From IMG/VR virus record IMGVR_UViG_3300034157_000065, positions 128,831-192,830 of that record: a DNA stretch of 64,000 nucleotides. One strand, given 5' to 3'. The stretch is from a virus (lineage: Duplodnaviria; Caudoviricetes). Position 1 is the stretch's first letter; the number at the start of each line of letters is the position of its first letter. Shown in pieces: positions 11,157 through 64,000 of this stretch. The notes beneath the pieces are model-generated. The model was not told the DNA's origin, searched no databases, and worked only from the letters and a program-made list of their open reading frames with translations. Both the position numbers and the translations under genes were made by a program.

Positions 11157-11669
11157 TTATATAACTAACATGTTGGCGAGAGTCAACCTTTGATTGAAAT
11201 CAATACTGTTGAAATCATACACACCAATGACATCTAATTCTGGTAGTAAATCTCTCATGTCTTGGCCTTCTGGTTGTTTTGAACGCATGTAAATATTTAA
11301 CAAATTTTTATCAACACTCGGATAAAAATGACTGATATAGCCATTTCTATCTCTTACATAATGATAAATGACCTTAGACAGTTCCAAATGATTTTCTTTT
11401 TTTACATCAGCATAAAAAATCCATAACACATCGCCATTGAATTTGTTGTAAAAGGAAAACCTTAAACTTTTAAATTTTCCATCATCAAAAAGAGCATCAC
11501 AGTCCTTAGACATACCGTCAAAAGACAGCTTTAATTTAATGGTATTGAAATTAAGTGTTTGTTTTAAAGGCATACCATTAGCATCCTGTTCGCACAAAAC
11601 TTCAAAATAACCGGGAAGTCCCCATTTATTTTTGTCTTCGAAATCAGTGAGTGTAAATTTTTCGTACAT
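11157..11669 (-). CDS. Paralog family A (LPE..YDFxS..F..R; ends RLTLANMLVI)
   Basis: Conserved C-terminal block shared with 5 other ORFs. Confidence 0.8.
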   Translation of the reverse strand: MYEKFTLTDFEDKNKWGLPGYFEVLCEQDANGMPLKQTLNFNTIKLKLSFDGMSKDCDALFDDGKFKSLRFSFYNKFNGDVLWIFYADVKKENHLELSKVIYHYVRDRNGYISHFYPSVDKNLLNIYMRSKQPEGQDMRDLLPELDVIGVYDFNSIDFNQRLTLANMLVI

Positions 11670-12181
11670 TAGATTAATACCATATTAGCGAGGGATACTC
11701 GTTGTTTAAAAGATTCACTGGCAAAGTCATAGACTCCCGTGATGTGTAGTTCTGGCAATAGTTCTTCCATGACAGCTTGATGACCAGTATGGATTGCCAT
11801 CAGCACTTTTAGTAAATCTTCTTCTAGAATGGCTCCGAATTGGTGCTTGTCAGCCTCTTGAATGCGGCCACCTGTTTTACTGCAGCCAAATAAAGCTTTA
11901 ACGAAATTGAGTTCTTTATCAAACAATATACTGAGCTTATGTGTAAAATGTTTATTGTGAAAATAAAATTTAAGTGATTTAAATTCAAGTTCGTCAGAAA
12001 ATGTGGCAACACATAACTCAGTTAAACCATTAAATGAGAATCCTGTCTTAATATCAAGTTTTCTTATTTCTTTGTATTTGTGATTAGGCGTAATAATTTC
12101 TTTCGCCAATGCTTCAAGATTCGCCACTAATCCAGTTTTGTCGGCGTTCAGAAAATTTGAAATAACAGGAGCATTAGACAT
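11669..12181 (-). CDS. Paralog family A (ends RVSLANMVLI)
   Basis: LLPELHITGVYDFASESFKQR block; TAATG coupling to next gene. Confidence 0.8.
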   Translation of the reverse strand: MSNAPVISNFLNADKTGLVANLEALAKEIITPNHKYKEIRKLDIKTGFSFNGLTELCVATFSDELEFKSLKFYFHNKHFTHKLSILFDKELNFVKALFGCSKTGGRIQEADKHQFGAILEEDLLKVLMAIHTGHQAVMEELLPELHITGVYDFASESFKQRVSLANMVLI

Positions 12182-12384
12182 AGAGAATACCTTTTAAAAA
12201 GTAATCATTAGCATATCACATTTCAATTATTAAAATCAATCATTATCGAAATTTTGATGGATACCTCTCCTATAACAAGAATATTAATACCGTGCTCATT
12301 GATACAGCTCTATTTAAATAAGGCTTGTGGTTGATTGAGAAAAGCATTATAATGAGCCATCTTAAATTATGAAGGATAATTTCA

Positions 12385-12933
12385 ATGACGACTGCTATGA
12401 AACTTAAAAAAGATGACCTTTTCGTTGTGACCACTAACATCGCTGGTTCGGCTATCAAGGCTGGTCATATTGTCTTTGTGCATAAAGGTGGTGCTAATCC
12501 GATTATGGCACGCTTCGATGAGGTTACTAGTAAAACGGTTTCTTACAAGAAAGAAGCCACTGCACACTTCATGAAATATCTTCGTCCAGCCACAGCGGCT
12601 GACATCAAAGGCGATTTTGCTGATTGCGTCATTTTGAAGAACGATGAACATGAAACCCATCGTGGCGTTGCTTTCAATACCGTAGTAGGCATTAATAAAA
12701 AACCTGTCTTTGCTATTGCTAACACGGGTGTGGGTGGAATGACGACTGTTGAAGTTCATGATACAGTCAAAACCACTGAGATCATGGCGAAGTTTCGCCA
12801 ACTGTTGAATGCACATTCGCCTACTGGCAAAGATGACTTGGATGAGTTTGTTTACGAAGGGTTTGTGAACTTTCTTATGCATGACAGTAAAATCATGAAT
12901 GTCGAAACCTACGTTAAGCATCGTTATACCTAA
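12385..12933 (+). CDS. Hypothetical protein
   Basis: AAGGA RBS, promoter and terminator. Confidence 0.7.
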   Translation: MTTAMKLKKDDLFVVTTNIAGSAIKAGHIVFVHKGGANPIMARFDEVTSKTVSYKKEATAHFMKYLRPATAADIKGDFADCVILKNDEHETHRGVAFNTVVGINKKPVFAIANTGVGGMTTVEVHDTVKTTEIMAKFRQLLNAHSPTGKDDLDEFVYEGFVNFLMHDSKIMNVETYVKHRYT

Positions 12934-13106
12934 TAATCAACCATTTCACGAACCAAAAGAGGATGTCTAAGGATGTCCTTTTTTTTTAAAAGACATAAAT
13001 CCGTTTTAGCCACATACCATGATGTTATATTACATTATCTTAAATTTCCTTTGATCTATGTCAATAAATAGTGTATAATTTCAAATATCATTAAGGTACC
13101 TAAATT

Positions 13107-14105
13107 ATGCATAGCTTCCATTCTCATCACTCTCATGACGAACATGCCCATGACACTGTTAATGTGGCAAACCATGATCATTGTCCTAGTCTTCACATTC
13201 ATGAAATCAATAAGCAAAAAGCCAGTGGCCGCAAAAAGCTTGCCATTATTATGGGTATTACCTTTGCTTTTGCGATTGTTGAAATGATTGGGGGTTGGTT
13301 TTCTGGATCATTGGCTTTGATTTCTGACGCATTCCATATGTTAACTGACTCATCTTCATTGATGTTGGCTTTAATTATGGCAATTCTTGCCCAAAAGCCC
13401 GCTGATGATAGATATTCCTATGGACATGGCCGTTGGGAGATTATAGGGGCATTACTGAATGGTTTGTTCATGATTGCTGTGATTGTCTTCTTGGTCTATG
13501 AAGGCATTGACCGAATCCTTAATCCCAGAGCGGTTGAACCGACTACCATTATTTGGATTGCCTCTATTGGATTGGCTATCAATATCTTTGCAGCATGGTT
13601 ATTGCACTCACACAGCCACTCATTAAACACCCGAGGTGCCTTTCTCCATGTGCTTGGTGATTTACTGGGTAGCGTTGCCGCTATTGCTGCTGGTGTGATT
13701 ATTTATTTCACTGGCATGACTGTCTTTGACCCGATTATTTCTATTGTTGTGGCTCTTATTTTGGTTGTTCCTACTTACAACTTGTTGAAACAAACAGCCA
13801 GAATCATCTTAGAAGGTGTTCCAGAACATATTGATTATGTCGAAGTCGGCAAGAACTTGAATGACATCCCTAATGTTATCTCAGTGCATGACCTCCATAT
13901 TTGGTCAATGACTTCTGAACATATCTCATTGTCTGCACACGTTGAGATTTCTAGCATGAACGAATGGGAAACAGTGTTAGCTGATATTCAATTGATGTTA
14001 TCTGAGAAGTTCCAGATTAACCACATCACCTTACAGCCCGAAGTGCATAAAGAAGAATTAGAAGAAAAAGCTGACGATCATCATCACAGTCATCACGCTC
14101 ATTAA
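13107..14105 (+). CDS. Cation diffusion facilitator (ZitB/CzcD-like Zn/Co/Cd efflux)
   Basis: SLALISDAFHMLTD, YSYGHGRWE, GAFLHVLGDLLGS, VHDLHIW; His-rich termini; 6 TM. Confidence 0.95.
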   Translation: MHSFHSHHSHDEHAHDTVNVANHDHCPSLHIHEINKQKASGRKKLAIIMGITFAFAIVEMIGGWFSGSLALISDAFHMLTDSSSLMLALIMAILAQKPADDRYSYGHGRWEIIGALLNGLFMIAVIVFLVYEGIDRILNPRAVEPTTIIWIASIGLAINIFAAWLLHSHSHSLNTRGAFLHVLGDLLGSVAAIAAGVIIYFTGMTVFDPIISIVVALILVVPTYNLLKQTARIILEGVPEHIDYVEVGKNLNDIPNVISVHDLHIWSMTSEHISLSAHVEISSMNEWETVLADIQLMLSEKFQINHITLQPEVHKEELEEKADDHHHSHHAH

Positions 14106-14170
14106 ATAACGCTTTTAACTGTCCGTTGTTTGTGGTATAATCGCTGTATTATCAATAACGGACTTTTAAC

Positions 14171-14875: not shown

Positions 14876-14909
14876 AATAGAACTCGAAAAAAAAGCCTCT
14901 TCGGAGGCT

Positions 14910-19369: not shown

Positions 19370-19382
19370 GAAGGAATATATT

Positions 19383-19636: not shown

Positions 19637-20146
19637 ATGTCAAAAACTATCGCGTTTACTGAAATCCCTGTCGAATCTAAAAAAGTTAGATCCTTCAGAC
19701 TATCTGATATTAAAGTGATTTCAGAAACTGACCGTGCTGATATTGAACAATTGGCCGCTGTTAAAGTCAACGAACCTTTTTTTGCGGTTGTGGAAGGTGA
19801 TAGACATTACATTTACTCTTTCTCCAAGGTTTTTGAGGGGATCAAAAAAGAACATGAGAACTTGAAAGAACGTAAATTTACAATGATTCTGTTCTGTGTT
19901 GTTAGTCTGATTGTCGCTATTGGATCTCTTCTTTTTTTAAAGTTTAATGGTCATTCTGTAACTCCTGATATGTTAGGTTACGCTGCTTTTTTTATTTTCT
20001 TTGTCTGCTTGTGGGATTTGATTACAACACGCTATACAAAAATGATTAATATTCTTAATGACAAGAAGACCTATGTGTTAACGGAAAGTCAGGATTATCT
20101 ACAACAACTCAAAGAAGAAGCTCAAAAACCAGTACTCATTATCTAG
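19637..20146 (+). CDS. 2-TM membrane protein (paralog of 20208..20729)
   Basis: Shared YIYSFxK and QDY...KEE..KPV motifs. Confidence 0.75.
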   Translation: MSKTIAFTEIPVESKKVRSFRLSDIKVISETDRADIEQLAAVKVNEPFFAVVEGDRHYIYSFSKVFEGIKKEHENLKERKFTMILFCVVSLIVAIGSLLFLKFNGHSVTPDMLGYAAFFIFFVCLWDLITTRYTKMINILNDKKTYVLTESQDYLQQLKEEAQKPVLII

Positions 20147-20207
20147 CAGATGTGTTAAAATAGCTTAAATGTTTAGCAATTCCATCTATTCTTTGAGGCT
20201 TAAATTT

Positions 20208-20729
20208 ATGAAAAATATTACCGAATTGTCTATTGAACAAGTTATTCCAGAACCAACGCCAGAAATTCATTCGTTTGTTGGTTACAACATTCAGTTGCTC
20301 GGGGAGCTAGATCGTGAACGCTATGCTGACTTGGAAAATTTGGATGACAAAGAACCTTTGCTTTCTGTTTCTAATGGTAAACGCAATTATATTTATTCTT
20401 TCACGAAGGCTGTGAAAGTCATTGAAAAAGAAATACTATCATTAGAAAATAATTTTATTAGTTCAATCGGCATGGCTGTTTGTTCTTTTATGCTTTTCGT
20501 TGGTGTTTGTGCAATGCTCTTATCCGCAAGTAGGGTTCCAGAATTCGCACCAATGTTTGGAGTCGGATTTGGAGGACTGACTGTTTATTCAATCATTCAT
20601 TTGATTAGGTTTAAACATCTTAAAAAAATTAAAGAACTTAAAAACAAAAAAACTGCAATTTTTACTTATGGTCAAGATTACATTAAAACGAAGAAAGAAG
20701 AATACAAAAAGCCAGTGGTTGTCGTTTGA
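20208..20729 (+). CDS. 2-TM membrane protein (paralog of 19637..20146)
   Basis: Same shared motifs; GAGG RBS. Confidence 0.75.
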   Translation: MKNITELSIEQVIPEPTPEIHSFVGYNIQLLGELDRERYADLENLDDKEPLLSVSNGKRNYIYSFTKAVKVIEKEILSLENNFISSIGMAVCSFMLFVGVCAMLLSASRVPEFAPMFGVGFGGLTVYSIIHLIRFKHLKKIKELKNKKTAIFTYGQDYIKTKKEEYKKPVVVV

Positions 20730-23315: not shown

Positions 23316-23972
23316 ATGTTTGACAACAAGGCCATACTCAATGTCACTGAATATATTCAAGAACATCAAGCTTCTTTTCAAACGGTTAAAGATCAGTTAC
23401 ATAACAAAATATTGGATGCTTTTAAACGAGTTGAAGATTATTTTGATGTCATACTTCAATTTAACTTTAATGATAATAAAAATGTTGTTTTTAATTTTTT
23501 TGAAATCGAATTCACGAAATATGAATCATCCAGTTTTTGTGGCTTTGTTGCAACATCTGTTCACGATACTATTTCTTGTGATGTGGGGTATTTTCCATTT
23601 TCAATCACCCCTACAAATACAGCTTTTTCTTTAAAGTTTAATTCTGACTTTGAGTTGAGTTCCGTGATAATTTCATCCAGAAATTTCAGTATGTTAAAAC
23701 CAACGTCATCTGCCAATCGACTTGATCTTGTTTTTGATGATAATTTTAAATTAAAAGAAATATCACGTACATTTCAAAATGAAGTTATTTTAAAGAAAAC
23801 TGAATCGAATTTATCTTCCTATGAAGAAGAGTTGAAACTTTTTCAAATCAGTGAAAGCAATATAAATAATTTCATTGATTATCTTCCTGAATTCTATATT
23901 CCAGCAGCTTATGATTTTAATAGCATTGATTTTAAAGATAGAATGTCTGTGTATGATATGAGTTGTCTATAA
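23316..23972 (+). CDS. Paralog family A (ends RMSVYDMSCL)
   Basis: LPEFYIPAAYDFNSIDFKDR. Confidence 0.8.
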   Translation: MFDNKAILNVTEYIQEHQASFQTVKDQLHNKILDAFKRVEDYFDVILQFNFNDNKNVVFNFFEIEFTKYESSSFCGFVATSVHDTISCDVGYFPFSITPTNTAFSLKFNSDFELSSVIISSRNFSMLKPTSSANRLDLVFDDNFKLKEISRTFQNEVILKKTESNLSSYEEELKLFQISESNINNFIDYLPEFYIPAAYDFNSIDFKDRMSVYDMSCL

Positions 23973-23984: not shown

Positions 23985-24689
23985 ATGCTAACTGTTACGA
24001 AAACTGACATCAAAGATCAAGAACTTATGAAAAAGTTCTTGATGCCACCAGACTATTCATCTTATGACCAGTTCATTGATCACTGCCTCAATGAGATTAC
24101 TATAAAAGTTCAATCTATCATGGATGACCTTAGTATTAAAATGAACGCTCGATTAAAGTTTGGCTCGCATTCAATTTTAGATGGACTTAATGATTTTCTT
24201 GTCATCGCTTTAATGAAAATCTGTTTTAAAAAAGAAGTTGTTGATGAACAGACTTTTTGTACTGCCACTTTCAATGGAATTTTGTCATTTGAATGTGGAA
24301 CATTTGATTTCAAATTTAATCAATCCTATTCTTATTTCCATGTCATAGTTAATGAAGAACTCAAATTAACTGCTTTCGAATATTCATCTGTCGTCTATGA
24401 CAATCAAAATGTTAACAAGCGAGTTAACTTAAAATTCGATCAGGATGCGAACCTTACTGAATATTTATATAAAGTGGACTCTACTTTTTTTGGATGGTCT
24501 GTTGAACGTTTAAAGAGTAAAGACATGTTGTGTACTTATGATGATGAATTGTTTCTACATAATTCAATTGCTCACCGAACAGCCCTGATGGATGAACTAT
24601 TTCCAGAATTGTCTGTAATGGGTGTCTATGATTTTTCGTCACCTGAATTTAAACGTAAACTAACTTTATTTGAAATGTCATTGATTTAA
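23985..24689 (+). CDS. Paralog family A (ends KLTLFEMSLI)
   Basis: FPELSVMGVYDFSSPEFKR. Confidence 0.8.
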   Translation: MLTVTKTDIKDQELMKKFLMPPDYSSYDQFIDHCLNEITIKVQSIMDDLSIKMNARLKFGSHSILDGLNDFLVIALMKICFKKEVVDEQTFCTATFNGILSFECGTFDFKFNQSYSYFHVIVNEELKLTAFEYSSVVYDNQNVNKRVNLKFDQDANLTEYLYKVDSTFFGWSVERLKSKDMLCTYDDELFLHNSIAHRTALMDELFPELSVMGVYDFSSPEFKRKLTLFEMSLI

Positions 24690-24800: not shown

Positions 24801-25436
24801 ATGACAACTAACACACCTATGACTGAACTTGCATGTTATATCCAATCAAAAAAGACTGATATTAAAGAAAAAATATATAATTCTATTTTAAAGATAGAGC
24901 AGCACTTCAATATTAAACTAGATTATGATGTAACAGACCTTGGTAATGATATTATTATTAAAGGTGTTGAAGAACATTCGTTTACTGTCTCTAAATGGTT
25001 TCAATCAAAACTGAAACCTGATCATCTTTTAAAGTTTAACTGCAAAGGATTTCCTTTTACGCTTCCACAGAGTAGCAAATCTATTTTTTTTATTATTTTC
25101 AATGACGATTTCAGTATTAAAAAAGCTCAATTTAGAACCGCCTTTATTAATAATGGTGATGTCGTATGGTTAAAACTCTATTTTAATAACCTACTTATGC
25201 TAGAACATATCGAAAACACTTATCTTCCAAGGCTTGGTGGTAAAAATATTGTTGTTATTAAATCTTCTGATATGCTTTGTCCTTTTGATGATGAAGTAGT
25301 TTTGTTTAAATTAGCTCATAACAGAAATGAAGAAGTTAAAGAACTGTTGCCAGAATACTACATCCCATCTGCTTATGATTTTAATTCCGTAGAATTTACA
25401 GATCGTCTGAAAGTGTATAGCATGTTGACACTTTAA
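24801..25436 (+). CDS. Paralog family A (ends RLKVYSMLTL)
   Basis: LLPEYYIPSAYDFNSVEFTDR. Confidence 0.8.
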   Translation: MTTNTPMTELACYIQSKKTDIKEKIYNSILKIEQHFNIKLDYDVTDLGNDIIIKGVEEHSFTVSKWFQSKLKPDHLLKFNCKGFPFTLPQSSKSIFFIIFNDDFSIKKAQFRTAFINNGDVVWLKLYFNNLLMLEHIENTYLPRLGGKNIVVIKSSDMLCPFDDEVVLFKLAHNRNEEVKELLPEYYIPSAYDFNSVEFTDRLKVYSMLTL

Positions 25437-29710: not shown

Positions 29711-30313
29711 TTACCAGTATTGCTTACCAGTAATCATCGAATAGATTATAAGTGGAATTCCAATAACCACTATCCCAACAATCGCGATTGGTGCAACAAC
29801 AACAACACCAAAAATAAATAAAGCGATGCCTTTAAATAAATCAATAACGTCATCCATATTTTCTTGTGCTGTTGCACTTAAAGGCTCAACTTCAATTGTG
29901 TATCGAAAGCCTTTGATATTTTCTCTATTATAAGCACCTTCGCAAGTCTTTGTAACTATCATATAATCTTTATTATTTAAAATTTCATATTTTTTTTGAC
30001 CTTTAAATGGGCCTAGTTTTTCTATCAATATATTAGCTTCTGTCGATAAATCTTTCCAACACATTTCTTCATCTAAATATAATTTACTTGTCTTCATTAC
30101 AGAACTTATATTATTATTTTTTTTAACATAAATTCTCAATTCTGAATCGTCTTCAAATTTTTTATAGTTCATGCCAATCTGTAATGGTTCATCCATTTCT
30201 TGTTTATAGACAGGTATATCTTTTTTAGGGGAACTGCTGCACCCTATTAAACTTATTATTGTTAATGCCACAGTAGTCATCTTAAATCCATTTTTTATTA
30301 TTTTAAAGTTCAT
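29711..30313 (-). CDS. Lipoprotein with C-terminal TM hairpin (AT-rich island)
   Basis: Lipobox LIGC; hydrophobic C-terminus. Confidence 0.75.
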   Translation of the reverse strand: MNFKIIKNGFKMTTVALTIISLIGCSSSPKKDIPVYKQEMDEPLQIGMNYKKFEDDSELRIYVKKNNNISSVMKTSKLYLDEEMCWKDLSTEANILIEKLGPFKGQKKYEILNNKDYMIVTKTCEGAYNRENIKGFRYTIEVEPLSATAQENMDDVIDLFKGIALFIFGVVVVAPIAIVGIVVIGIPLIIYSMITGKQYW

Positions 30314-31094
30314 TAAAAAAATCCATTATTTACTTATATATATTATTATATAGCATACAATAATACTTATAGCAACTTAATAAAAAAGCCAACTTATGAT
30401 TGGCTTATTATTTTTATACTTTAAGATTTAGAACAAACTTTTAATTAGATAAACTGGAAACAGTATTATAAATCCAACTATGATAAATGGAAAGGCTATT
30501 GTCATTCCAAGAGCACGACCTATTTTACTCATAGTTGAGGGTTTGCCACTAGATTTATCAAAATTCTCTACTTTAATTTCATAGTTGTATATTTTTTGTT
30601 CTTTTTCTTCAATTGTAGATGTTTTATCAAGCATTTCTTTATTTATCTGGCATCCCGTCTTGGTTATTTTAAAATCAACTGTTTCAGTGTAAGACAAAGA
30701 TTCACTGTTGTAGATATCTTGTAGTTTTGATTCCTTTAATACTGTTTTAACAGTTTCTTTGTAATCAGTTTCAGCATTAGTTTTACAATCTTCCTGATTA
30801 TAGAAAGCACTAACTTTCTTTATCATTACAATTTCATTTTTTGAGTTCTTTCTATATTCAAAGTTGTCACCATTTTTATTCACGTCAGTTAAGTTGACAA
30901 CTTCTTCCTTTTTATCATTCATTTTTTTATCGTAAACTACGATTTGTGGTTTACCAGCACAACCAACTATACTCATTATTGTTAATGCCACAGTAGTCAT
31001 CTTAAATCCATTTTTTATGCTTTTAAAGTTCATTAAAAACTCCAATGTTATCTTATATATACTATTATATAGCATACGATAATACTTATAGCAA
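30255..31094. repeat. ~120-bp imperfect direct repeat (30255-30375 and 30975-31094) covering promoter, RBS and signal peptide
   Basis: ATTATTGTTAATGCCACAGTAGTCATCTTAAATCCATTTTTTAT...ATAATACTTATAGCAA in both copies. Confidence 0.9.
30428..31033 (-). CDS. Lipoprotein with C-terminal TM (AT-rich island)
   Basis: MNFKSIKNGFKMTTVALTIMSIVGC, near-identical N-terminus to 29711..30313. Confidence 0.75.
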   Translation of the reverse strand: MNFKSIKNGFKMTTVALTIMSIVGCAGKPQIVVYDKKMNDKKEEVVNLTDVNKNGDNFEYRKNSKNEIVMIKKVSAFYNQEDCKTNAETDYKETVKTVLKESKLQDIYNSESLSYTETVDFKITKTGCQINKEMLDKTSTIEEKEQKIYNYEIKVENFDKSSGKPSTMSKIGRALGMTIAFPFIIVGFIILFPVYLIKSLF

Positions 31095-31171
31095 ACTCAC
31101 AAAAAAACAACACTTATTGTTTTATATGATATTAATTTATTTTTTTTATTTTCCAATGTTTTAAATTTATC

Positions 31172-31834
31172 TTATATATTAGCTAATAATAAAAACGGTG
31201 AAAGTAGTATTCCACCAACCACCATAGCAACGCCTACAAAATAATAAGGTAATGACGCTTTCCAAGATTCTATTTTGTATAAAAATTTATCAATGTAGCT
31301 GGCTTCAGCAATAATTTCATAACCGTATGTATTGGTCATAGTTTTATAACATTCATTTTCAACGATAGAAAAGCTATTGTTTATGTTATTTATTTGTTTT
31401 AATGTATCATCGTAATTATTTTTACACTGTTCTAGATTTTCATTTTCGTAATGATATTTCAGTTTAACTATATTTCCAGCCAATGTATCAGTTGTTATAG
31501 TTTTTGAGTTTTTATGATAGTCATAAGAATTGAAACCAATGGAACTGTTGAATCTATTACCGTTACCTTCTCCCGCAGTAGTCCCAACATGGACAAAAAA
31601 ATTAAAAGTTAACATCCATATTAATATTGCTATTTTTGTTTTTTTAAAAGATGAAAAGAAACTGTCTAAAAAAATTACAAATGGTCTTAATGTAAATCGG
31701 TAAATATTGTATATTATCTTTACACATACAAATTCAAATACATTATAAAAAAAATCCCATAATTCTAATCTATCTAATGATTTACCAACATCAGCAGTTA
31801 GTATCTCTTTTATTTTATTTATTATTTTTTTCAT
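31172..31834 (-). CDS. Membrane protein (AT-rich island; paralog of 31879..32532)
   Basis: MKKIINKIK, IIYNIYRFTL, YEIIAEA; C-terminal TM. Confidence 0.75.
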   Translation of the reverse strand: MKKIINKIKEILTADVGKSLDRLELWDFFYNVFEFVCVKIIYNIYRFTLRPFVIFLDSFFSSFKKTKIAILIWMLTFNFFVHVGTTAGEGNGNRFNSSIGFNSYDYHKNSKTITTDTLAGNIVKLKYHYENENLEQCKNNYDDTLKQINNINNSFSIVENECYKTMTNTYGYEIIAEASYIDKFLYKIESWKASLPYYFVGVAMVVGGILLSPFLLLANI

Positions 31835-31878
31835 GACTTAATACTCATTTTAGGTTTAGTTTAGTTTATTTTTTTATT

Positions 31879-32532: not shown

Positions 32533-32579
32533 GGTTTTAAACTCATTTTATGTTTATTATTCATTTTCTCTAATAGCTC

Positions 32580-48810: not shown

Positions 48811-49629
48811 ATGTTAGAACGCATATTTAAAGCAAAAGATGATTTCGATAAGGCCACTCTGTTAAAAGTTTCTGTTGATGATTATAAACCTAAGATCACT
48901 TTCTTTACAGGATCTGGCATTTCTCAGGAGAGCGGTTTAGAAACATTCAGGGCGGATGATGGATTGTGGAGTAATCATCGTGTGGATGAAGTTGCAACGG
49001 CTCACGCTCTGCAAAAAGACTTTAAAAAGGTTAACAACTTTTTTAATGATAGACGTAAAGAAGTCATGGCCGCTCAACCTAATCGTTCTCATGAGATATT
49101 GAAAGAACTTGAAAAGTATTTCCATGTCGTTGTTGTCACTCAGAACGTTGATGACTTGCATGAGCGTGCTGGCAGTTCGTCTATTTATCATTTGCATGGA
49201 GAAATCATGCGTTCAAGACCAGTTGGCAATGCCAAAGTATTCTATGACCAAAAGAAAGACATTAAACTGGGTGATAAGTGTATGTTGACCAAGGCTCAAA
49301 TTAGACCGCATATTGTTTTGTTTGATGAAATGTTAGATGACAGTATTCTGTCTGACGCCAGAAGGCATATTAGAGAGTCTGATGTGTTTGTCGTGGTCGG
49401 TAGCAGTCTTCAAGTTGAACCCGCCGCTTCATTGGTGGTAGAAGGCTTTGGTCTGCGAGATTTTATATTGGTTGACCCAAGCACCGTCTTTATGAAATAC
49501 AATGCTAATTATGTTCATGTGAAAGAAAAAGCGTCTGTTGGTTTGGAAATGATGTTACCTCAGTTGATTATTAAGGCTGACCAGTTGCAAACTCAGTTTA
49601 AAGAAAACAAAGAAAGATTGAAAGCATAG
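48811..49629 (+). CDS. cobB: Sir2-family NAD-dependent protein deacylase (CobB-like)
   Basis: TGSGISQESGLETFR, TQNVDDLHERAG, HLHG, RPHIVLFDE, VGSSLQVEPAA. Confidence 0.9.
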   Translation: MLERIFKAKDDFDKATLLKVSVDDYKPKITFFTGSGISQESGLETFRADDGLWSNHRVDEVATAHALQKDFKKVNNFFNDRRKEVMAAQPNRSHEILKELEKYFHVVVVTQNVDDLHERAGSSSIYHLHGEIMRSRPVGNAKVFYDQKKDIKLGDKCMLTKAQIRPHIVLFDEMLDDSILSDARRHIRESDVFVVVGSSLQVEPAASLVVEGFGLRDFILVDPSTVFMKYNANYVHVKEKASVGLEMMLPQLIIKADQLQTQFKENKERLKA

Positions 49630-49683
49630 TGCATTATGTGCTATACTTGCGGTTATCTATATTGATTCCTTGAAGGATTTAAA

Positions 49684-50463
49684 ATGACAAGCATTTATGA
49701 AAAACTTTTAACCTTACATAATAATGAAGCTCTCGATGACACATCGAATGCCTTTGTTGTTTCAAATTTAATAGGGTTATTGAAAGCTTCATGTGGCATT
49801 GATTTGTCGGAGCAAGCAGATCCTTTTGTTTATAGCGATTTCAGTGTTATGAATGATGGTTATTTTGAATTATCTTATAATTTCAAATATGGCATTGCTT
49901 ATCTATCCACAATTCCAGTAGAACATAACTTAAAGGTGTCGTTTTCTTTTTCTAATGAGATTCAAGAGACTTTATATAAGAATACTGTTTGTTATTTAGA
50001 TGTCGATTATAATATGACATTCGAAAAATCATTATTGAACAGGGTTTTTGAATTCTCAAAAACAATACTTAATCAATCTAAACTAAGCTCTGACTGGTCT
50101 GTGTTACTTGTAAATACCACCGTTAATAGCGACTTAACCACTGTTAACCATTTTTCATATCAAAACAATGCTTCCTATTCGAACTCATCAGATGATATAG
50201 AAGACTTAATGAATCATGGATTACCGGCTTGTTATATGAATTATGTTAAAGAGTTTGATGAACTATTCTTTACTTTTTTAAAATTTCAATCAACTAAACC
50301 ACACGTATTTTATGAAGTATTCCCAGAATATCCAAGTTATCTTGATATTATATCGTCCATTGACTATCTCATTAAAAATTTAGAAATGTTCTCTCAACAA
50401 TACAGTGATGATAAGATATTCCTTAAAAGTAAAATAGCATTAATTGAAATGAGGCTTATTTAA
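49684..50463 (+). CDS. Paralog family B, member 12
   Basis: FPEYPSY; ends SKIALIEMRLI. Confidence 0.85.
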   Translation: MTSIYEKLLTLHNNEALDDTSNAFVVSNLIGLLKASCGIDLSEQADPFVYSDFSVMNDGYFELSYNFKYGIAYLSTIPVEHNLKVSFSFSNEIQETLYKNTVCYLDVDYNMTFEKSLLNRVFEFSKTILNQSKLSSDWSVLLVNTTVNSDLTTVNHFSYQNNASYSNSSDDIEDLMNHGLPACYMNYVKEFDELFFTFLKFQSTKPHVFYEVFPEYPSYLDIISSIDYLIKNLEMFSQQYSDDKIFLKSKIALIEMRLI

Positions 50464-50464
50464 C

Positions 50465-51274
50465 ATGGTTACTATTTATGAAGAGTTTCTTAAAAGAAAA
50501 TCAACCAAAAGATTAGGTAAAGAATTGACTTCAATTATGAATGAGAAGTTAACTCAACTTTTAAAGGATACCTGTAACATTGATTTAAGCGGAACAGATA
50601 GCCCCTTTTCACAGTGGCACTTTATTGATTTACATGATCTTCATCCACACCCTAGATTTACCGTTTTTAATGATGGTGTCATGGATGTTAATTTTCATTT
50701 CAAAAATGGTTCGGCTACGATTATGCTCTATCCTAAAAGAAAAGTGTTAACGGTTGCTTTTCATTTTAATAAGCTCGGTTGTGATTTAATGTTTCCCTAT
50801 GATTCAAAATCCTGTTTTGTTACTGTCGATCATGACATGAACTTTATAGAAGCCCAGTTTAGAATAAATTTTTGTTTATTTAAATCAACTATAGATAAAA
50901 CCGATTCTAGTCGAACATCCAGTATGGTGTCTATTCAAGTTAATCATGACAACCAAGGAGATGTTAAAACACAGTTTATTTATGGCAATAATTTATATGC
51001 TACTTTGTTAAAATACCTTTCTGTACATGGATTAAGTCCAGCATTCTTTAACTCAGATGAGTCGTTTAATCTTATTCTTTCTAGATTTATGAAAGTAAAT
51101 ACTGAACACCCTGATATGTTTTACGATGAGTTTAAAGAGTACATCAGTTATCAAGAACTCATGAGTTCGGTTAATTCAATGGTTTATTTTTTAAATATGT
51201 TTGCTGAGCAATATAATAATGATTTATATTTATTAACGTCACGATTGATGTTAATTGAAATGAGGAATATTTAA
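50465..51274 (+). CDS. Paralog family B, member 13
   Basis: VDHDMNFIEAQF; ends SRLMLIEMRNI. Confidence 0.85.
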   Translation: MVTIYEEFLKRKSTKRLGKELTSIMNEKLTQLLKDTCNIDLSGTDSPFSQWHFIDLHDLHPHPRFTVFNDGVMDVNFHFKNGSATIMLYPKRKVLTVAFHFNKLGCDLMFPYDSKSCFVTVDHDMNFIEAQFRINFCLFKSTIDKTDSSRTSSMVSIQVNHDNQGDVKTQFIYGNNLYATLLKYLSVHGLSPAFFNSDESFNLILSRFMKVNTEHPDMFYDEFKEYISYQELMSSVNSMVYFLNMFAEQYNNDLYLLTSRLMLIEMRNI

Positions 51275-52017
51275 TGAACACCATTCATGATTCATTGATG
51301 AAATTACAATACTTGGATAACCTTGATATTGGTTCATTATTTTATCCAAAATTTATTTTTTTACTCAAACAAGTATTTGACATTGATTTGACTAATGAAA
51401 CCAATCCATTTCAGGAAGTTTCTCAAATGATTGGTGATAATATTGATATTTGCTATCTATTTAAATATGGCAGCATTCTTGTATCCACTCACAAAGAAAA
51501 CACTGATATTAATGTATATGTCACTATTACTGATAGTAGTCTTAGTGATAAAATGCCCTACAAATCTACATCTTGCAGTTTAAAACTTGATCATAACATG
51601 AATTTTATACAGGCATCCTTTGATATTAGTCTGGAATTTACACGCTCATACAATAATGAGTATAGTCTACTACAAATCAAGACTGTATTAAATCAATCAT
51701 CGCGTATTGTTAAAACATTTACTTATTCGAACAAAACAATGTATTCAGTTTCAAAAGATTTGAGATCTTTTGGACTTAGTTCCAACTTTTTTACAGTCAA
51801 TAAAGAATTTGATGATTGCTTAATCAACTTCTTAACGTGCTGTTCAGAGACACCAAAACAATTCTATGATGAATTTCCAGAATATCCTAACTATGATAAG
51901 TTGATATCAACGGTGGAAGGCACTGTACAATTATTGTCTATCTTTAACAAACAATATACAGATGACAAGGATTTATTGAAATCACGATTGTTATTGACTG
52001 CCATGTGTTTGATTTGA
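51274..52017 (+). CDS. Paralog family B, member 14
   Basis: LDHNMNFIQASF, FPEYPNY; ends SRLLLTAMCLI. Confidence 0.85.
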   Translation: MNTIHDSLMKLQYLDNLDIGSLFYPKFIFLLKQVFDIDLTNETNPFQEVSQMIGDNIDICYLFKYGSILVSTHKENTDINVYVTITDSSLSDKMPYKSTSCSLKLDHNMNFIQASFDISLEFTRSYNNEYSLLQIKTVLNQSSRIVKTFTYSNKTMYSVSKDLRSFGLSSNFFTVNKEFDDCLINFLTCCSETPKQFYDEFPEYPNYDKLISTVEGTVQLLSIFNKQYTDDKDLLKSRLLLTAMCLI

Positions 52018-52586: not shown

Positions 52587-52648
52587 TTAATAGTTTTGAC
52601 ATTTCGGTGATAATTTGATAGAATCCTTAGATTATTAAGGAGTCTACC

Positions 52649-53752
52649 TTGTTTAATTTCTTCAAAAAATTCCGACAAAAAAATAAACTACGTGGTTTCT
52701 CGTGTGGAGCCATCTCTGTTAATGTGTCGCAAGTTGAAATTGAATTTGGTAGAAATATTACCTATACCTGTTCTTTTTTTGATTACATCATTTCTTTTGA
52801 CTACAATGATTATAAGGGTGTCATTAATCAATTAGGTGTGAGCACCATCTCTTACAAAAACACCGTTATCTGCAAAGAGCACCACAATTTAACAATCAGT
52901 GGCTTAACACCAGAAGATTATTTAAAAAAGTATTTTCAAAAAGCAATTGATTATTCTCAGCAATTAGACGTAAATCATTTGAATATCGTTTTGCCATTTT
53001 TTGAAACCAAAGCCTTTAATTATACTAAAAGTCTTGAAATAGGATTAGAATATTCTTATCCACATGGATGTATTTACAATGTAGCCTTAATGCAGGAAGA
53101 CGCCACTTATAACGCCTATCTTAATAGCCATTGTAATAAAGGATGGACTAAATTTAATATTGTCACTTATAATGACACTGTATTTGATTGTTTATACACC
53201 AATGAGTTTGGTTATCTTTTAAGACAAAATCAATTACAAATCTCTCAAATCAACACAATATCAATTCAGATTAGTTATCTAATTGATGAGAGTAAACTCA
53301 ATCTGAGCACTTTCGACCGTGGCTCTGATAAAGTTTTCTTTAATGTTGATAAAAAGACCGCTTTATTATACCGAGTCATTGTTTCTCAAAAAGAGTACCA
53401 CGGCTCTCATATGGACGAGGTTGATGAATTGTATAACTACACTTCATTGCATCTATTCTGGGTGGTTGATTTTGAACATAAAACTACTAATCTTAGTATT
53501 TTTGAGTATGCGTATGATGACAATACATTCATTAAAGAACACACTCATTCAATGGAAACTAGGTTTATAGGTGAAATGCTTGATTTAGCTTATTATGAAG
53601 AATTTTTCAATAAAACAGTTGATAAGTTAATTCACTGTTATTATCCTAGTAGAAAGCTTATTGAACTTTTGGATAGTGCAATAGATCTCGATGGTTTTGA
53701 TGGTACGCTGACAGAAGAACAATACCACTTGTTTAAAATGATGACTATTTGA
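52649..53752 (+). CDS. Paralog family C (ends LTEEQYHLFKMMTI)
   Basis: Paralog of 53830..54867 (LHxFWxVxF, ETRFI); AGGAG RBS with TTG start. Confidence 0.8.
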   Translation: MFNFFKKFRQKNKLRGFSCGAISVNVSQVEIEFGRNITYTCSFFDYIISFDYNDYKGVINQLGVSTISYKNTVICKEHHNLTISGLTPEDYLKKYFQKAIDYSQQLDVNHLNIVLPFFETKAFNYTKSLEIGLEYSYPHGCIYNVALMQEDATYNAYLNSHCNKGWTKFNIVTYNDTVFDCLYTNEFGYLLRQNQLQISQINTISIQISYLIDESKLNLSTFDRGSDKVFFNVDKKTALLYRVIVSQKEYHGSHMDEVDELYNYTSLHLFWVVDFEHKTTNLSIFEYAYDDNTFIKEHTHSMETRFIGEMLDLAYYEEFFNKTVDKLIHCYYPSRKLIELLDSAIDLDGFDGTLTEEQYHLFKMMTI

Positions 53753-53829: not shown

Positions 53830-54867
53830 TTGTTTAATCCATTTAATTTTCTAAAAAAAAATAAGAATACCTCTTTTAAAGTGAATGGTGTTCGTGTTTC
53901 TGTGTTAGTCACGCCTTCTATTTCATGTCAGCATATCAAATACGTTGCTTATTTTGGTGGTTTTGAAATCGTTTTTGAGTATTATGACTACTTGTATATA
54001 ATTAACAAAATAGGCCGTTGTCAGATACTATTAAACAATGTGGTTATTCATCAAGAACCGTATAATATCACCTTATCTAAACTCGACCCTAATAAATATA
54101 TAAAACTTTGTTTTAAAAGACTAATTCACCATGTCAAACAACTAAATTATTTTAAGTTGGCGAAGATTACCCCCATTTTTCAGTGTGATATTTTTAACTA
54201 TATAAGTAGTCTTGCAATCTATAAAATTAATAAATTTAGAAATGTTGATATTTATTATCTATCACTAACTCAGAAAAATGATGTTGAGATTCCATATAGA
54301 CTTCGATATAACGCTAGGGATTTAAATAATATTGAAGTTGTTGCTTTTTCTGGCACACCTTTTTGTCATTTGATGTCTCATGATAACCTTTCTTCTAAAT
54401 TCATTGATGCTAGCAACGCTATTTATGATAATAACCGTATTAGAAACCATCCAGCAAAGTATGCGTCTTTCAAACTTGGAAATAATTTTAAGAACTCTTA
54501 CTATAATCCAACTTTAAATGAAGCTCTTGTTTATTTTATTTTTCAACACTCTTTATGTTATTCCAGTAATAAGATTGTTTTACATTTTTTCTGGCATGTT
54601 TCCTTTTCTAAAAAAAATGTTCAGTTGGTTACATTTATTTTTGATGATGAGAAATTCATGGGTGAATTTAATGAACCTATAGAAACTAGATTTATTGATG
54701 ATGATATTGATCTTGATTATTATAAGAACTTTCTTGAAATTTATATTGAAAAATTATTACTCATTTACTTTCCAACTCAGGCACTGGCTGACTTTCTGAG
54801 TATTCCAGATTTTAATGGTCGATTAACCGAAGACCAATACAGTGTTTTCTCGATGTATAGTATTTAA
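53830..54867 (+). CDS. Paralog family C (ends LTEDQYSVFSMYSI)
   Basis: Paralog of 52649..53752. Confidence 0.8.
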   Translation: MFNPFNFLKKNKNTSFKVNGVRVSVLVTPSISCQHIKYVAYFGGFEIVFEYYDYLYIINKIGRCQILLNNVVIHQEPYNITLSKLDPNKYIKLCFKRLIHHVKQLNYFKLAKITPIFQCDIFNYISSLAIYKINKFRNVDIYYLSLTQKNDVEIPYRLRYNARDLNNIEVVAFSGTPFCHLMSHDNLSSKFIDASNAIYDNNRIRNHPAKYASFKLGNNFKNSYYNPTLNEALVYFIFQHSLCYSSNKIVLHFFWHVSFSKKNVQLVTFIFDDEKFMGEFNEPIETRFIDDDIDLDYYKNFLEIYIEKLLLIYFPTQALADFLSIPDFNGRLTEDQYSVFSMYSI

Positions 54868-56015: not shown

Positions 56016-57071
56016 CTAGATAACCATTGCTTCAATGAGTAGTAGTTCATTTCCTTCAAGATCACCTTCTAGCTTAAATCCAAACTCTTCTCTGGTTTCT
56101 TCGCTAACGCATTCTTTGCACAATATATTGAGATACCATGACAAAGCTTCTGGATAGTTCTGTAACACTCTTTTCATTCTGGTATACATTAAGAAGTCGG
56201 ATGTCATCTTATCGTCTTTCATTAATATTATTTTTTGAAAGTTTGAACCACTTCTGATCAGTCTATCAACTGATATGTTTGTCATGTCCGCTTGTGTTAA
56301 GTTTTTGAAAATGACCATATTGTATTCATCATCTTCCATTGACAAAGCTGCCTTGATGTAAAAGAACGATTTATTATTAAAACTCAGCTCAAGAATACAT
56401 TTTTTTTGACGAGAATCATGTTCAACCTCTGTCAACCAACAGGACTTTACAGGAAGAAAACTAATACCAGTATTTTCGAAATTTAGTTGCTCAATATAGG
56501 TTTCTTCTCTTTTGTAGACTGTTGTTCCAATGACTTTAAGATTTTTTGTTTCTAGCGTCACATTTCCTTCATAATTAACAATCTTGTAAACAGATTCTAA
56601 TGATGGATTGAGTTTTATTTCAAAACAACTGTTGTCATATTTATCATCAAAACCACGTATTTTCATTTTTTTGTAAAGATAACTAGCTATTTTGAGCAGT
56701 TCATCTTGGTTATGTTGTTTATATTCTTCAACAATATGATTAAATTTTGGCATTAAATCCAATATACTGTTGTATTGATCGAATACTGTATTCTTTTCTG
56801 ATTCATAGGCTTTTTTATAGACAATAATATTCTCAACAAACAAGGATTGAATAATTTTTTCTCGATTAATAAAGAGGTATTCAACCATTTGGTTCTGGTG
56901 ATTTCTTTTGAACGATTTTAGGTGCCCTATTTTTCTATAGTCGGGACGAACCAGTCCCATTAGGATAAGATCAGGATCTTCGAAAAAATCATGTTCAATC
57001 GTTTCATACCCCAAATCATCAAGGGTTAAAATTTTAGGCTTAGCAAACACCTCGAAAATAAATTGAAGCAT
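56016..57071 (-). CDS. Hypothetical protein (ends LLLIEAMVI)
   Basis: GAGGTG RBS before ATG 57071. Confidence 0.75.
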   Translation of the reverse strand: MLQFIFEVFAKPKILTLDDLGYETIEHDFFEDPDLILMGLVRPDYRKIGHLKSFKRNHQNQMVEYLFINREKIIQSLFVENIIVYKKAYESEKNTVFDQYNSILDLMPKFNHIVEEYKQHNQDELLKIASYLYKKMKIRGFDDKYDNSCFEIKLNPSLESVYKIVNYEGNVTLETKNLKVIGTTVYKREETYIEQLNFENTGISFLPVKSCWLTEVEHDSRQKKCILELSFNNKSFFYIKAALSMEDDEYNMVIFKNLTQADMTNISVDRLIRSGSNFQKIILMKDDKMTSDFLMYTRMKRVLQNYPEALSWYLNILCKECVSEETREEFGFKLEGDLEGNELLLIEAMVI

Positions 57072-57228
57072 GTACACCTCTTGAAAAATTAATGGAAATA
57101 AGTTAACCGAAGTATAGCAAAAATCCGAACTAATATCTATACCCATTGTGTTTTTTTGTTTGTTGACAATCCTTTGTTTTCTTGTAATAATACTGGCTTA
57201 TTCCAAAACAGTCCAAAAGGTAGTCCCT

Positions 57229-58574: not shown

Positions 58575-59177
58575 ATGTTCAAAGGTCTTATTGCTCTCGT
58601 TGTGCTATCTATTTCTATGGTTGGATGTGCAACACAAGAATATTCTAATATGGGTAGTTTGACAGAAAGCATTAAAAAAAATGGAAAAGTCTATGAAGCT
58701 AATGCAAGCTTTATTCAGTGGAATGAAGACTATGCTGTAACTGCAAGGCATGTCACTATTGTTAAGAACCCTGATTTTGTTTGCAGTTCTGGTTGCGACA
58801 TGGTATTTTTCAAACATAAAGCTGAAAACTTTAATTCATCACAAAAATGGAGAAATGCCGAATTTGGTGAATCCATTAAAGCAGTTGGCAACAACATCAA
58901 ACAATTTGTTGTTGAACGTGAAGGTAAAGTCTTGAAAGAGATTGTAAAAGACAATCCAAAAGCAGAATATTTTTACCTTGTGAATGACGCAGATACCGTG
59001 GGAGGTATGTCTGGTGGCCCAGTTTATGCGGCTAATGACAATGCTTTGATTGGTATGACTATCGGTGTATCACAAGAATCCAAAGCGGATGGTGTGAAAG
59101 AATCCCTATTTGTTCCTTATGAGATTATTCGAGTGGAATGGGAAATTTTTCAAGAAAATAAAAAACAAAACCTGTAA
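58575..59177 (+). CDS. Lipoprotein trypsin-like serine protease
   Basis: Lipobox MVGC; VTARHV (His), CDMVF (Asp), GMSGGPV (Ser). Confidence 0.85.
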   Translation: MFKGLIALVVLSISMVGCATQEYSNMGSLTESIKKNGKVYEANASFIQWNEDYAVTARHVTIVKNPDFVCSSGCDMVFFKHKAENFNSSQKWRNAEFGESIKAVGNNIKQFVVEREGKVLKEIVKDNPKAEYFYLVNDADTVGGMSGGPVYAANDNALIGMTIGVSQESKADGVKESLFVPYEIIRVEWEIFQENKKQNL

Positions 59178-61391: not shown

Positions 61392-61399
61392 GTGAGTAT

Positions 61400-61660: not shown

Positions 61661-61668
61661 GAGAGTAT

Positions 61669-62256: not shown

Positions 62257-62274
62257 AACTAAAGGAGACTAAAA

Positions 62275-62514
62275 ATGACAATTGATTTCGGTTTTGATGT
62301 AGGTAATGATCCACCACCACGACATGTTAACCCTACCGTTTCTGATGATGGCTATATGGCTATTGGTGGTCAGTTGGTCTATGTTGGGGTAGCAACACAG
62401 AAGCCTCCTACGCCGTCTAAACCTTCACAGAAGACACCGGTTGATCGTAAACCCGATCCTGACGCTGGTTGGTTCTGTACGGATACTCAATGCATCTGGA
62501 TTGGTGATGACTGA
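62275..62514 (+). CDS. Small Pro-rich protein
   Basis: AAGGAG RBS; ends GWFCTDTQCIWIGDD. Confidence 0.65.
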   Translation: MTIDFGFDVGNDPPPRHVNPTVSDDGYMAIGGQLVYVGVATQKPPTPSKPSQKTPVDRKPDPDAGWFCTDTQCIWIGDD

Positions 62515-62519
62515 CCATC

Positions 62520-63260
62520 ATGATTAGTCAATCATTTAAAAATAGCATCAGCAATTCTTTAAAAGAAAATTATGGAATTGATCTTGTTAAAATTAAAAAG
62601 CTTTCGAGTAAAGGCTATTTGTATCAGGACTTTAATCTTTATGGCAAGTCTGATGGGCTTTCGCATATGCTTCGCTTGAGGATTAACTTTTGTGACGATG
62701 ATGCGGAAGATTATCGGAGATCTTTCTATATTTTCACAGATGCTCATAGCTATTTATCTTCTTGTAAAACAGTCAGAGATAAGATACATCCACTATGTAT
62801 TAATAAAGCCATTTTAGAAGTTAAGAAACTATTCTCGTTTCTTGATTCTACTTACACATATAGCTTTAATCATTTAAAAGTCAGTTTGGTTTCTGGCACT
62901 TATACCCAGATTCCCACTGGCTTAATGGTTAACACCATTCAAGGAATTGTAGAAACCACCAGTATTATTTCAGTTTATGTCTCTTTTTCTGATGATGATT
63001 TTTGTATCGTGAATATCATCGGTAATAAGATATCTGTTCGTCCATCAAATGGATATACCACCGAACCTGCTTTTCAAGGTTCATCAACGCTAGATGAAGA
63101 GGGTATTGATAGCTTTAAAGCTCGTTTTGCCAAATGTTTGTTAATCTATATCAATAAGAAACTTAATGGTCGCTATAATCATCAGGAAGATGATTACATG
63201 AGTTTAACCTATGATGAGTTGAAGCGATATTTCCTTGTATTAGAAATGGAAAAAATATGA
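62520..63260 (+). CDS. Paralog family D (ends YFLVLEMEKI)
   Basis: Paralog of 63257..64000 (LRLRINF, SGTY, RPxxGYxTExAF). Confidence 0.8.
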   Translation: MISQSFKNSISNSLKENYGIDLVKIKKLSSKGYLYQDFNLYGKSDGLSHMLRLRINFCDDDAEDYRRSFYIFTDAHSYLSSCKTVRDKIHPLCINKAILEVKKLFSFLDSTYTYSFNHLKVSLVSGTYTQIPTGLMVNTIQGIVETTSIISVYVSFSDDDFCIVNIIGNKISVRPSNGYTTEPAFQGSSTLDEEGIDSFKARFAKCLLIYINKKLNGRYNHQEDDYMSLTYDELKRYFLVLEMEKI

Positions 63261-64000
63261 TCAGTACAACTTTTGAAAATATAATTAAAAATGAATTAAG
63301 ACTACATTATGATCTTAACTTATCTGGTATAGTCGAAGTAGCGAGCCAGCTTCCTTTTTATAAAGATTTTAGACTTCGCTGTAAAGCGGATGGTTGTCTT
63401 TATTTATTGAGACTTAGAATTAATTTTCGTGATGACAATAATCAAAAAAATCAATCTTTCTCTATTTTTATCGAAGCTGTTAATAATGGTAATAACTTTT
63501 GGAATAACGTATGGAAAAAAGTTTATCCATCCACCATTGAAAAATCTCTTACAGAGGTAAGAAAAGAAATCTTCTTTGTTGATGAGCGATTTGGTTATAT
63601 GTTGGGTCATGACAAAATTTCGTTAATGTCAGGCACTTACTCTGATTCTGATTCTGATTCTGGTCTTGTTATTGAGACTCTACTTTCAATGGTTGAGACT
63701 GAAAGCTATATCTCTTATTATCAACCAGCTCGATCTATTGGGTCAGCTTATTCTTTTTGTGCCATTAAGATTAAAGATGATAAGCTTTATATTCGACCGA
63801 TTAAAGGTTATGAGACAGAAACTGCTTTCGATATCCCTATACCACTTGATAACACTGGTGTTGATATCTTTAAAGCTCAACTTTTTAAATGTTTATTGAT
63901 TTATATAAATTCAGAACAATACAATGAAGCTGATTATCTTAATTTAAATTATGAAGATATTAAAAAATACTTTCTTGTTTTGGAAATGAAAGAGATCTAA
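63257..64000 (+). CDS. Paralog family D (ends YFLVLEMKEI)
   Basis: ATGA-coupled paralog of 62520..63260. Confidence 0.8.
   Translation: MISTTFENIIKNELRLHYDLNLSGIVEVASQLPFYKDFRLRCKADGCLYLLRLRINFRDDNNQKNQSFSIFIEAVNNGNNFWNNVWKKVYPSTIEKSLTEVRKEIFFVDERFGYMLGHDKISLMSGTYSDSDSDSGLVIETLLSMVETESYISYYQPARSIGSAYSFCAIKIKDDKLYIRPIKGYETETAFDIPIPLDNTGVDIFKAQLFKCLLIYINSEQYNEADYLNLNYEDIKKYFLVLEMKEI

Follow-up and report, generated by a model that had tools for sequence, protein, structure and literature searches.

A C-terminal helical tag on about one protein in five of a putative huge-phage fragment and its relatives

The stretch of viral DNA considered here (64,000 nucleotides, called the window throughout) corresponds to bases 128,831-192,830, the last 64 kb, of the 192,830-bp IMG/VR record IMGVR_UViG_3300034157_000065, which is flagged as a provirus and has a CheckV completeness of 59%. 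The guanine plus cytosine content of the window is 31-39%, and its genes are short and tightly packed. Among them are genes whose protein products end in a common C-terminal tag with a methionine at position -4 (the last residue being -1), and these tagged genes often form tandem arrays of paralogues.

Family A contributes six tagged genes to the window. Two of these are on the minus strand (11157-11669, ending in LANMLVI, and 11669-12181, ending in LANMVLI), and four are on the plus strand (23316-23972, VYDMSCL; 23985-24689, LFEMSLI; 24801-25436, VYSMLTL; and 37181-37840, which has a TTG start and ends in LFDMVIC). The 14 genes of family B form a plus-strand array at 40204-52017. Genes 1 to 7 of this array are found at 40207-40941 (ILKMASF), 40956-41738 (LLEMQAI), 41841-42572 (LLDMQAI), 42574-43320 (LIDMQEI), 43322-44101 (LLDMQAI), 44103-44855 (LLDMQAI), and 44857-45621 (LLDMQVI); gene 8, at 45622-46422 (LIDMVGI), starts either with the TTG at 45622 or with an ATG at 45697. 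They are followed by gene 9 at 46424-47191 (LLEMQAI), gene 10 at 47193-47969 (LLDIQAI, a variant tail with Ile in place of Met), gene 11 at 47971-48729 (LLTMQTI), gene 12 at 49684-50463 (LIEMRLI), gene 13 at 50465-51274 (LIEMRNI), and gene 14 at 51274-52017 (LTAMCLI). Both family C genes are on the plus strand and have TTG starts (52649-53752, 367 residues, ending in LFKMMTI, and 53830-54867, 345 residues, ending in VFSMYSI). A minus-strand gene at 56016-57146 encodes a variant tag, LLIEAMVI, in which the Met is at -3 and the acid is still at -5. Finally, two family D genes close the window on the plus strand (62520-63260, VLEMEKI, and 63257-64000, VLEMKEI), and at least two more family D paralogues are present beyond the record end.

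All 25 genes behind the roughly 25 tagged proteins listed in a preliminary description of this DNA exist with the tails quoted there; Met stands at -4 in 23 of them and at -3 in another, and the remaining one has Ile at -4. That description placed the tag at 11157-64000. The tag is indeed present there, but it is not confined to this interval, as the whole 192.8-kb record and six relatives carry it. (These six related IMG/VR records, G001 to G006, were retrieved by means of the conserved C-terminal block of family A; with the present record, G000, they make up a set of seven, 152-437 kb in length.) Of the two defining features that had been proposed, Met at -4 has held up as the invariant one, while the last residue, described as aliphatic, is Ile, Tyr, or Leu and is polar in some variants.

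The tag is an 11-14-residue C-terminal helix whose register is locked to the free C-terminus. It can be written as an N-cap [ST]-x-x-[DE] followed by phi(-9), phi(-7), phi(-6), [DE](-5), M(-4), phi(-3), x, [I/Y/L](-1)-COOH, where phi is a hydrophobic residue. In a logo that weights each BLAST family once, an acid is present at -11 in 54% (D/N-cap), a hydrophobic residue at -9 in 70%, at -7 in 79%, and at -6 in 73%, Glu or Asp at -5 in 60%, Met at -4 in 100%, and a hydrophobic residue at -3 in 71%; any residue is found at -2, and by family weight the last residue is Ile in 70%, Tyr in 16%, and Leu in 9%. A capping box, [ST]-x-[DE]-[DE], opens many of the tails. Across the seven records, the final 11 residues of tagged proteins exceed the ends of untagged proteins in hydrophobicity and have a net negative charge, and Pro and Gly are depleted (1.6% versus 6.1%). 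The helical hydrophobic moment of the tails is not raised. Thus, the hydrophobic residues are not confined to a single face of the helix, which fits burial in a groove better than contact with a membrane surface. Variant tails retain Met(-4) even where the last residue changes. Where members of tagged families lack the tag, most still come close to it: they have Met with a polar last residue, have Ile or Phe in place of Met, or are extended by one or two residues. The Ile of family B gene 10 is the same in its orthologues in G001 and on a Logan contig that continues past the record end, and paralogues of the gene at 56016-57146 on this contig end in IEALFI, VEAMFI, and VDALTI.

A chance origin of the tag is excluded. 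When the proposed comparison with shuffled termini was run on the whole record, a strong excess of M(-4) was found. Met occupies -4 in 59 of the 289 non-overlapping open reading frames (ORFs) of the record, against a Met background of 2.5% (binomial P ~1e-35); at any other of the last 12 positions in these ORFs, Met is counted 2-14 times. The combination of M(-4) with a hydrophobic last residue is observed 55 times, whereas residue shuffles average 2.8 and never exceed 9. The strict motif [ILVFM]2-[DE]-M-x-x-[ILVY] occurs 24 times at a terminus and once internally in 53,127 positions. In the six related records, which include one with just 56 reciprocal best hits to another, the tag is present on 10-23% of ORFs, so that about one protein in five ends in the tag in this fragment and its six known relatives. 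A search of the literature found no paper describing such a tag.

Comparison with G001, a collinear relative of G000 with ~88% nucleotide identity, indicates how the tails evolve. Tagged proteins diverge faster than untagged ones (median identity 84% versus 91.5%, p = 1.4e-4), yet their tails are 90% identical, compared with 79% for the whole proteins. Orthologue pairs with no more than 41-52% overall identity retain the tail as well. Synonymous changes between G000 and G001 occur at conserved tail positions; at -7, six changes are synonymous and one is non-synonymous. Purifying selection on the protein keeps the tail while the bodies diverge quickly. A search with the family B profile of 1.84 billion representative proteins gave a similar picture: 57 of the 68 hits have Met at -4. 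The other 11 are mostly short fragments or long proteins matched in short repeated stretches, and one of them is a full-length-sized member with a diverged tail.

A different source of conservation would be the nucleic acid, with the last codons acting as a ribosome-binding site, a coupling signal, or a recombination joint and no protein signal involved. The family B array has a feature of this kind. Within it the next gene starts 1 nt after the preceding stop, and the tail codons ATG CAG GNN ATH TAA hold a Shine-Dalgarno-like AGG/GGAG for the gene that follows, so that tag and ribosome-binding site are one. This overlap, however, falls on the variable codons -3 and -2; it can therefore account for the local 'Q-A' preference of family B, but it leaves the tag itself unexplained. 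Furthermore, half of the tagged genes precede gaps of >=50 nt or sit at operon ends. Every codon for Ile, Leu, and Val occurs at the conserved tail positions (for Ile, ATT 76, ATA 17, and ATC 14 times), about ten different codons are found at -7, and the stop codons after the tag are of all three kinds, in the proportions of the genome. As the codons vary while the amino acids stay, conservation is at the level of the protein, and the codon diversity largely refutes a nucleotide-level explanation, which could hardly be given any credence.

The bodies that carry the tag are diverse. When the tails are removed, the 229 tagged proteins of five records fall into 96 groups after an iterative profile search, and with the last 14 residues removed only five of 435 family pairs reach 50% hhalign probability. 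The earlier suggestion of a constant tail on variable bodies is therefore borne out: the tail keeps its register with the C-terminus, has diverged less than the bodies, and is found on ~96 groups without detectable sequence relation. The earlier count of independent families needs a correction, since A and B merge in the iterative search as distant homologues, while C, D, and the 56016-57146 family stay apart. Several families besides A/B are also weakly linked by profile comparison. Pfam finds a domain (a deaminase) in only one of 120 tagged proteins from two records, compared with 52 Pfam families hit in 120 length-matched untagged proteins; searches of families A-D and of the largest proteins of the record with Pfam and PHROGs gave nothing useful besides SIR2 and the phrog_2155 structural-protein domain. 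Tagged proteins of the record are 170-310 residues long (5th-95th percentile; median 247), and those of relatives reach ~400 residues. N-terminal hydrophobic segments are found in 7.9% of tagged versus 19.3% of untagged proteins.

The timing of expression can be approached only through promoter matches. Sigma-70-like matches (11/12 positions plus a TG extension, both consensus matches only) are present on the plus strand at 40153-40181, just upstream of the family B array, and at 52596-52624, upstream of family C. None of the tagged genes is preceded by a T4-type late motif (TATAAATA). The carriers are probably early and probably cytoplasmic.

The reading that we favor, and consider probable, is that the tail is a portable, selected, end-locked docking or address helix on a large set of orphan proteins, which themselves are probably early and probably cytoplasmic. 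The foremost alternative has no external reader at all. Instead, the carriers would be one massively duplicated, ultra-divergent superfamily, and the C-terminal helix would be its best-conserved structural element, packed on the protein's own N-terminal helix or sheet. The AlphaFold models of family B (gene 5, pLDDT [predicted local distance difference test] 89.6) and family D (the gene at 62520-63260, pLDDT 85.2) bear on this question. Both are confident, and both are alpha+beta proteins. The tail of the D model is a separate helix (231-245) that follows a loop.

Several observations count against docking to a partner and speak instead for such a superfamily or for caution. The tail of the B model ends a long continuous helix (226-257), which also fits an intramolecular role, and the pLDDT of the tail helix in the two models is fairly high (80-95). 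The B and D models have a loose common architecture, with an N-terminal helix, two four-strand meanders, and C-terminal helices in a similar order, and they share some weak structural hits, among them 4akr, 9d2f, and 2lyx; together with the narrow size range, this predicted architecture makes a single ultra-divergent superfamily of carriers possible. The merging of A with B and the weak links among other families point in the same direction, and because the profiles are shallow, missing homology is weak evidence. Early timing, moreover, rests on consensus matches only, with 120 promoter matches versus 98 +/- 10 in shuffles, and no reader of the tag has been identified among the families searched in the seven records.

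Against the superfamily stand the 96 groups that remain unlinked after profile iteration and the heterogeneous N-termini, some of which have hydrophobic segments. An intramolecular contact would also be expected to co-vary with the body rather than to fix the distance of one Met from the carboxylate across groups, and natural variants hold Met(-4) despite a changed last residue. Structural searches gave no convincing fold match for either model: neither Foldseek (B against the PDB, D against BFVD) nor wide VIA-align searches of both against the PDB, whose best Z scores of 6.5 and 7.2 are in the noise range, found one, and a search of the ESM Atlas gave no usable hit. We regard the superfamily as an unlikely account of the tag. 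The scenario named beforehand as one that would overturn the docking idea, in which all carriers are full-length homologues and the tail is a buried structural helix, has thus been weakened by the profile comparisons, though not removed.

The search for a reader is limited by the nature of the records. PolB, gp45, gp55, terminase, and gp23 had no match in searches of record subsets that jointly cover all seven records (gp23 and terminase had none in G002-G006), and the records yielded no gene for a capsid, portal, terminase, or prohead protease. The largest record, G002 (437 kb), is labelled 98% complete; it has a full cellular-type DnaK (E = 9e-254), an NAD-dependent ligase, an M3 peptidase, TnpB, and 26 tRNAs, but it contains no ORF longer than 800 residues. 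Stop-codon recoding was considered as the cause of these missing long ORFs and was rejected, as none appears under any reassignment. Given this and the lack of terminase, capsid, and polymerase matches, the 98% estimate looks wrong, and the labels '96-98% complete' attached to the records look doubtful in general. The related records have 26-35 tRNA genes, amber-reading ones included, and cellular-type genes in the set encode DnaK, NAD-dependent ligase, ribosome recycling factor, and tRNA synthetase. All seven records are read here as accessory arms of larger huge-phage genomes. In records without a phage core genome, the absence of genes for ClpP, PDZ proteins, clamp, exporter, capsid, and terminase is weak evidence.

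The Logan contig (SRR28490295_89) was walked 58 kb past the record end, where more tagged genes and then a metabolic island were found, and no core genes. This island (L023:15963-20774, L024, and L025) encodes an HMG-CoA reductase, a UbiA prenyltransferase, a PPDK/rifampin-phosphotransferase-like protein, an AMP-binding enzyme, and an acetyltransferase. Its presence is the probable reason for the trimming of the record as a 'provirus' by IMG/VR.

A phylogenetic profile shows that only three untagged families are present in all six lineages. The first has the phrog_2155 / S-PM2 'virion structural protein' domain; its 22 members are multi-copy and have Sec signal peptides (examples of these secreted proteins are encoded on the minus strand at L003:12292-14652 and L003:15778-18141). 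The second comprises 18 Trypsin_2-like lipoproteins of ~190-240 residues with the lipobox L-x-G-C, encoded, for example, at 2353-3036 and 58575-59177 on the plus strand of the window and at 118648-119214 of G000 (L007:10651-11214, minus strand). At ~200 residues these proteins are too short to fit a PDZ domain behind the protease domain. The third is a multi-copy orphan of ~600 residues. None of the three is a convincing single cytoplasmic hub. Because the partner is not among the few families common to all records, the reader would be either in the missing core genome or a host protein.

One such host reader could be a protease. In this case the tag would be a C-terminal degron for an AAA+ protease of the host or the phage that resembles ClpXP, ClpAP, Lon, or FtsH, through which early proteins would be given a set lifetime or would act as suicide adaptors that drag host targets into the protease. 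The tag resembles ssrA-type tags, and the MuA degron that is likewise read by ClpX, in its strictly fixed distance from the free carboxylate and in its non-polar last residues. A conserved host reader would also explain the presence of the tag in very divergent phages and the lack of a common phage reader, and the probably early, probably cytoplasmic carriers suit a degron. In contrast to unstructured degrons, the tag forms a capped helix and has conserved acids at -5 and -11; ssrA and MuA degrons are LAA-like or basic (RRKKAI-like), whereas the tag is helical and acidic and has an invariant Met. ClpP is not shared among the records (one sub-threshold hit, in G002), AAA proteins are found in two records only, and DnaK is found in G002 only. 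The single PDZ_2 match, in G003, is also sub-threshold, so that PDZ is not shared either. A degron must be counted as unlikely, too.

The closest look-alike in sequence is a sliding-clamp ligand. In this reading the tag would be a tail that binds a clamp (a phage gp45-like protein or the host beta clamp) and tethers proteins to phage DNA. The docking of T4-family clamp-binding tails in one hydrophobic pocket has been reviewed (PMC2988020). The tails of gp43, gp55, and gp33, which act on gp45, and the tag described here are all short hydrophobic-acidic C-terminal peptides on unrelated proteins, although docking of the tag in a pocket would be only a presumption by analogy. The tail of RB69 DNA polymerase (gp43), L-F-D-M-F plus two residues, matches the tag in register, with L(-7), F(-6), D(-5), M(-4), and F(-3), while T4 gp43 ends in SLDFLFG and T4 gp55 in SLDFLYEAND. 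The element has further T4 links in a T4-type RNA ligase 1, a faint Phage_T4_Y00F match, and the S-PM2 structural-protein domain.

Other features set the tag apart from these ligands. It differs from the gp43/gp55 consensus of T4, S-L-D-F-L-[FY], and among 120 gp55 homologues another 2-5 variable residues come after the epitope L-[DE]-F-L-Y, which is thus not end-locked. T4 has a handful of clamp clients, compared with ~100 tagged proteins per genome, and as many competing clients would crowd out the polymerase. Clamp clients of T4 are replication and late-transcription proteins, whereas 119 of the 120 tagged proteins examined have no Pfam domain, nucleic-acid domains included, and the NAD ligase, DEDDh exonucleases, and RNA ligase present in the records are all untagged. 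Neither gp45 nor the beta clamp (PF02916, phrog_223, and PF02768) was matched in the records searched, and PolB is likewise absent from all seven records, which is weak evidence in a set that also lacks polymerase, terminase, and capsid genes. Membership of the tag in the clamp-ligand family is not supported, and the clamp itself is an improbable partner, but the tag may work like a clamp ligand, as a peptide in a groove.

Short terminal peptides also direct proteins into capsids, and the tag could be a cargo-loading peptide that packs proteins into a huge capsid for co-injection. A capsid lattice has sites enough for ~100 types of client, and fast-evolving orphans would be well suited to an anti-defence role after injection. 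The cargo peptides of encapsulins likewise sit at the C-terminus, and they bind a shell with the HK97 fold (PMC8346489). Like these peptides and the T4 capsid-targeting sequence, the tag is a short terminal peptide on unrelated cargo, a feature that was tested for here and found. Neither of the two has any sequence likeness to the tag, however, and the T4 sequence sits at the N-terminus, from which it is removed by cleavage, while the tag is C-terminal. The missing capsid genes mean that there is no linkage evidence, and the promoter context of the tagged genes (consensus matches only) suggests non-late expression, unlike late capsid loading. Cargo loading is accordingly judged quite unlikely, though less so than the clamp.

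Export is another destination for which C-terminal signals are used. Substrates of type I secretion have uncleaved C-terminal signals, some of which end in an acid plus hydrophobic residues. If the tag were such a signal, for a type I-like or another route, the HlyD-like protein of G002 and the many secreted proteins and lipoproteins that the element encodes would be in its favor. A type I signal needs a cognate ABC transporter and membrane-fusion protein, and this pair was not found: ABC_tran had no match in the seven records, and HlyD_3 matched in G002 only. Export is therefore highly improbable. Cargo-loading peptides, C-degrons, and type I signals are thus functional analogues of the tag without support from sequence or linkage.

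A looser parallel, drawn in the preliminary description, is with the C-terminal PRANC/F-box element of poxvirus ankyrin proteins. The logic is the same, with variable bodies and a constant C-terminal element, and in both cases the carriers are expanded, fast-evolving viral gene families. The comparison does not extend to the element itself, as PRANC, which recruits a eukaryotic ubiquitin ligase, folds as a domain of ~40-50 residues, whereas the tag has 11-14 residues, belongs to a bacterial virus, and is accompanied by no F-box-type Pfam domain in the 120 tagged proteins.

Other genes of the window also stand out. An untagged SIR2-family gene (Pfam E = 2e-37) is located within the family B tandem array, at 48811-49629 on the plus strand, and is found at the same position on the Logan contig. 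Two adjacent plus-strand paralogues at 19637-20146 and 20169-20729 end in K-P-V-L-I-I and K-P-V-V-V-V, which may represent a second, different common tail. Five tandem minus-strand genes at 29711-33137 encode proteins of 185-220 residues with very hydrophobic C-termini, and the N-termini of two of these (31172-31834 and 31879-32532) are near-identical. Translation is represented by a class Ib aminoacyl-tRNA synthetase (tRNA-synt_1b) and a ribosome recycling factor, at 34249-35244 and 39154-39708, both on the plus strand. A protein with His-rich N- and C-termini, containing runs of the H-S-H-H type, is encoded at 13107-14105, also on the plus strand.

How might an end-locked docking helix work? 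By comparison with clamp-binding tails and cargo-loading peptides, the binding mode would be that of a peptide in a groove: one conserved partner would have a hydrophobic groove that accepts the Met together with the aliphatic residue at the terminus and the hydrophobic pair upstream. This partner would come from the host or from the missing core genome. The phage would thereby gather a large, fast-diversifying, probably early, host-directed set of proteins at one machine or place. The candidate partners can be ranked, each with a share of the overall probability given to docking. First, with the largest share, comes a possible hub at which the variable bodies would act as adaptors or effectors; it is followed by a host or phage unfoldase/protease that would read the tail as a timing degron, then by loading of a capsid or compartment, and last by the sliding clamp, these three with the standing given to them above.

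More tentatively, and at rather less than even chances, this huge-phage clade may run an addressing system on the scale of the proteome, with one C-terminal helix, one hub, and about a hundred fast-evolving orphan effectors per genome. Such a system could be a viral adaptor network that brings host targets to one machine, or it could serve to load an injected arsenal. Most genes of huge phages are orphans without an assigned function. A selected, end-locked tag on a fifth of them would mean that these orphans are not independent of one another and that they plug into one partner. Consequently, once found, the partner would place about a hundred dark proteins per genome in a common pathway at once, and the 14-residue peptide offers an experimental handle for finding it, in pull-downs, reporters, and structure prediction. 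Should the bodies prove to be target-binding modules, the arrays would amount to a natural library of host-directed binders, and if the addressing system is real, it would be an undescribed organising principle of huge-phage biology.

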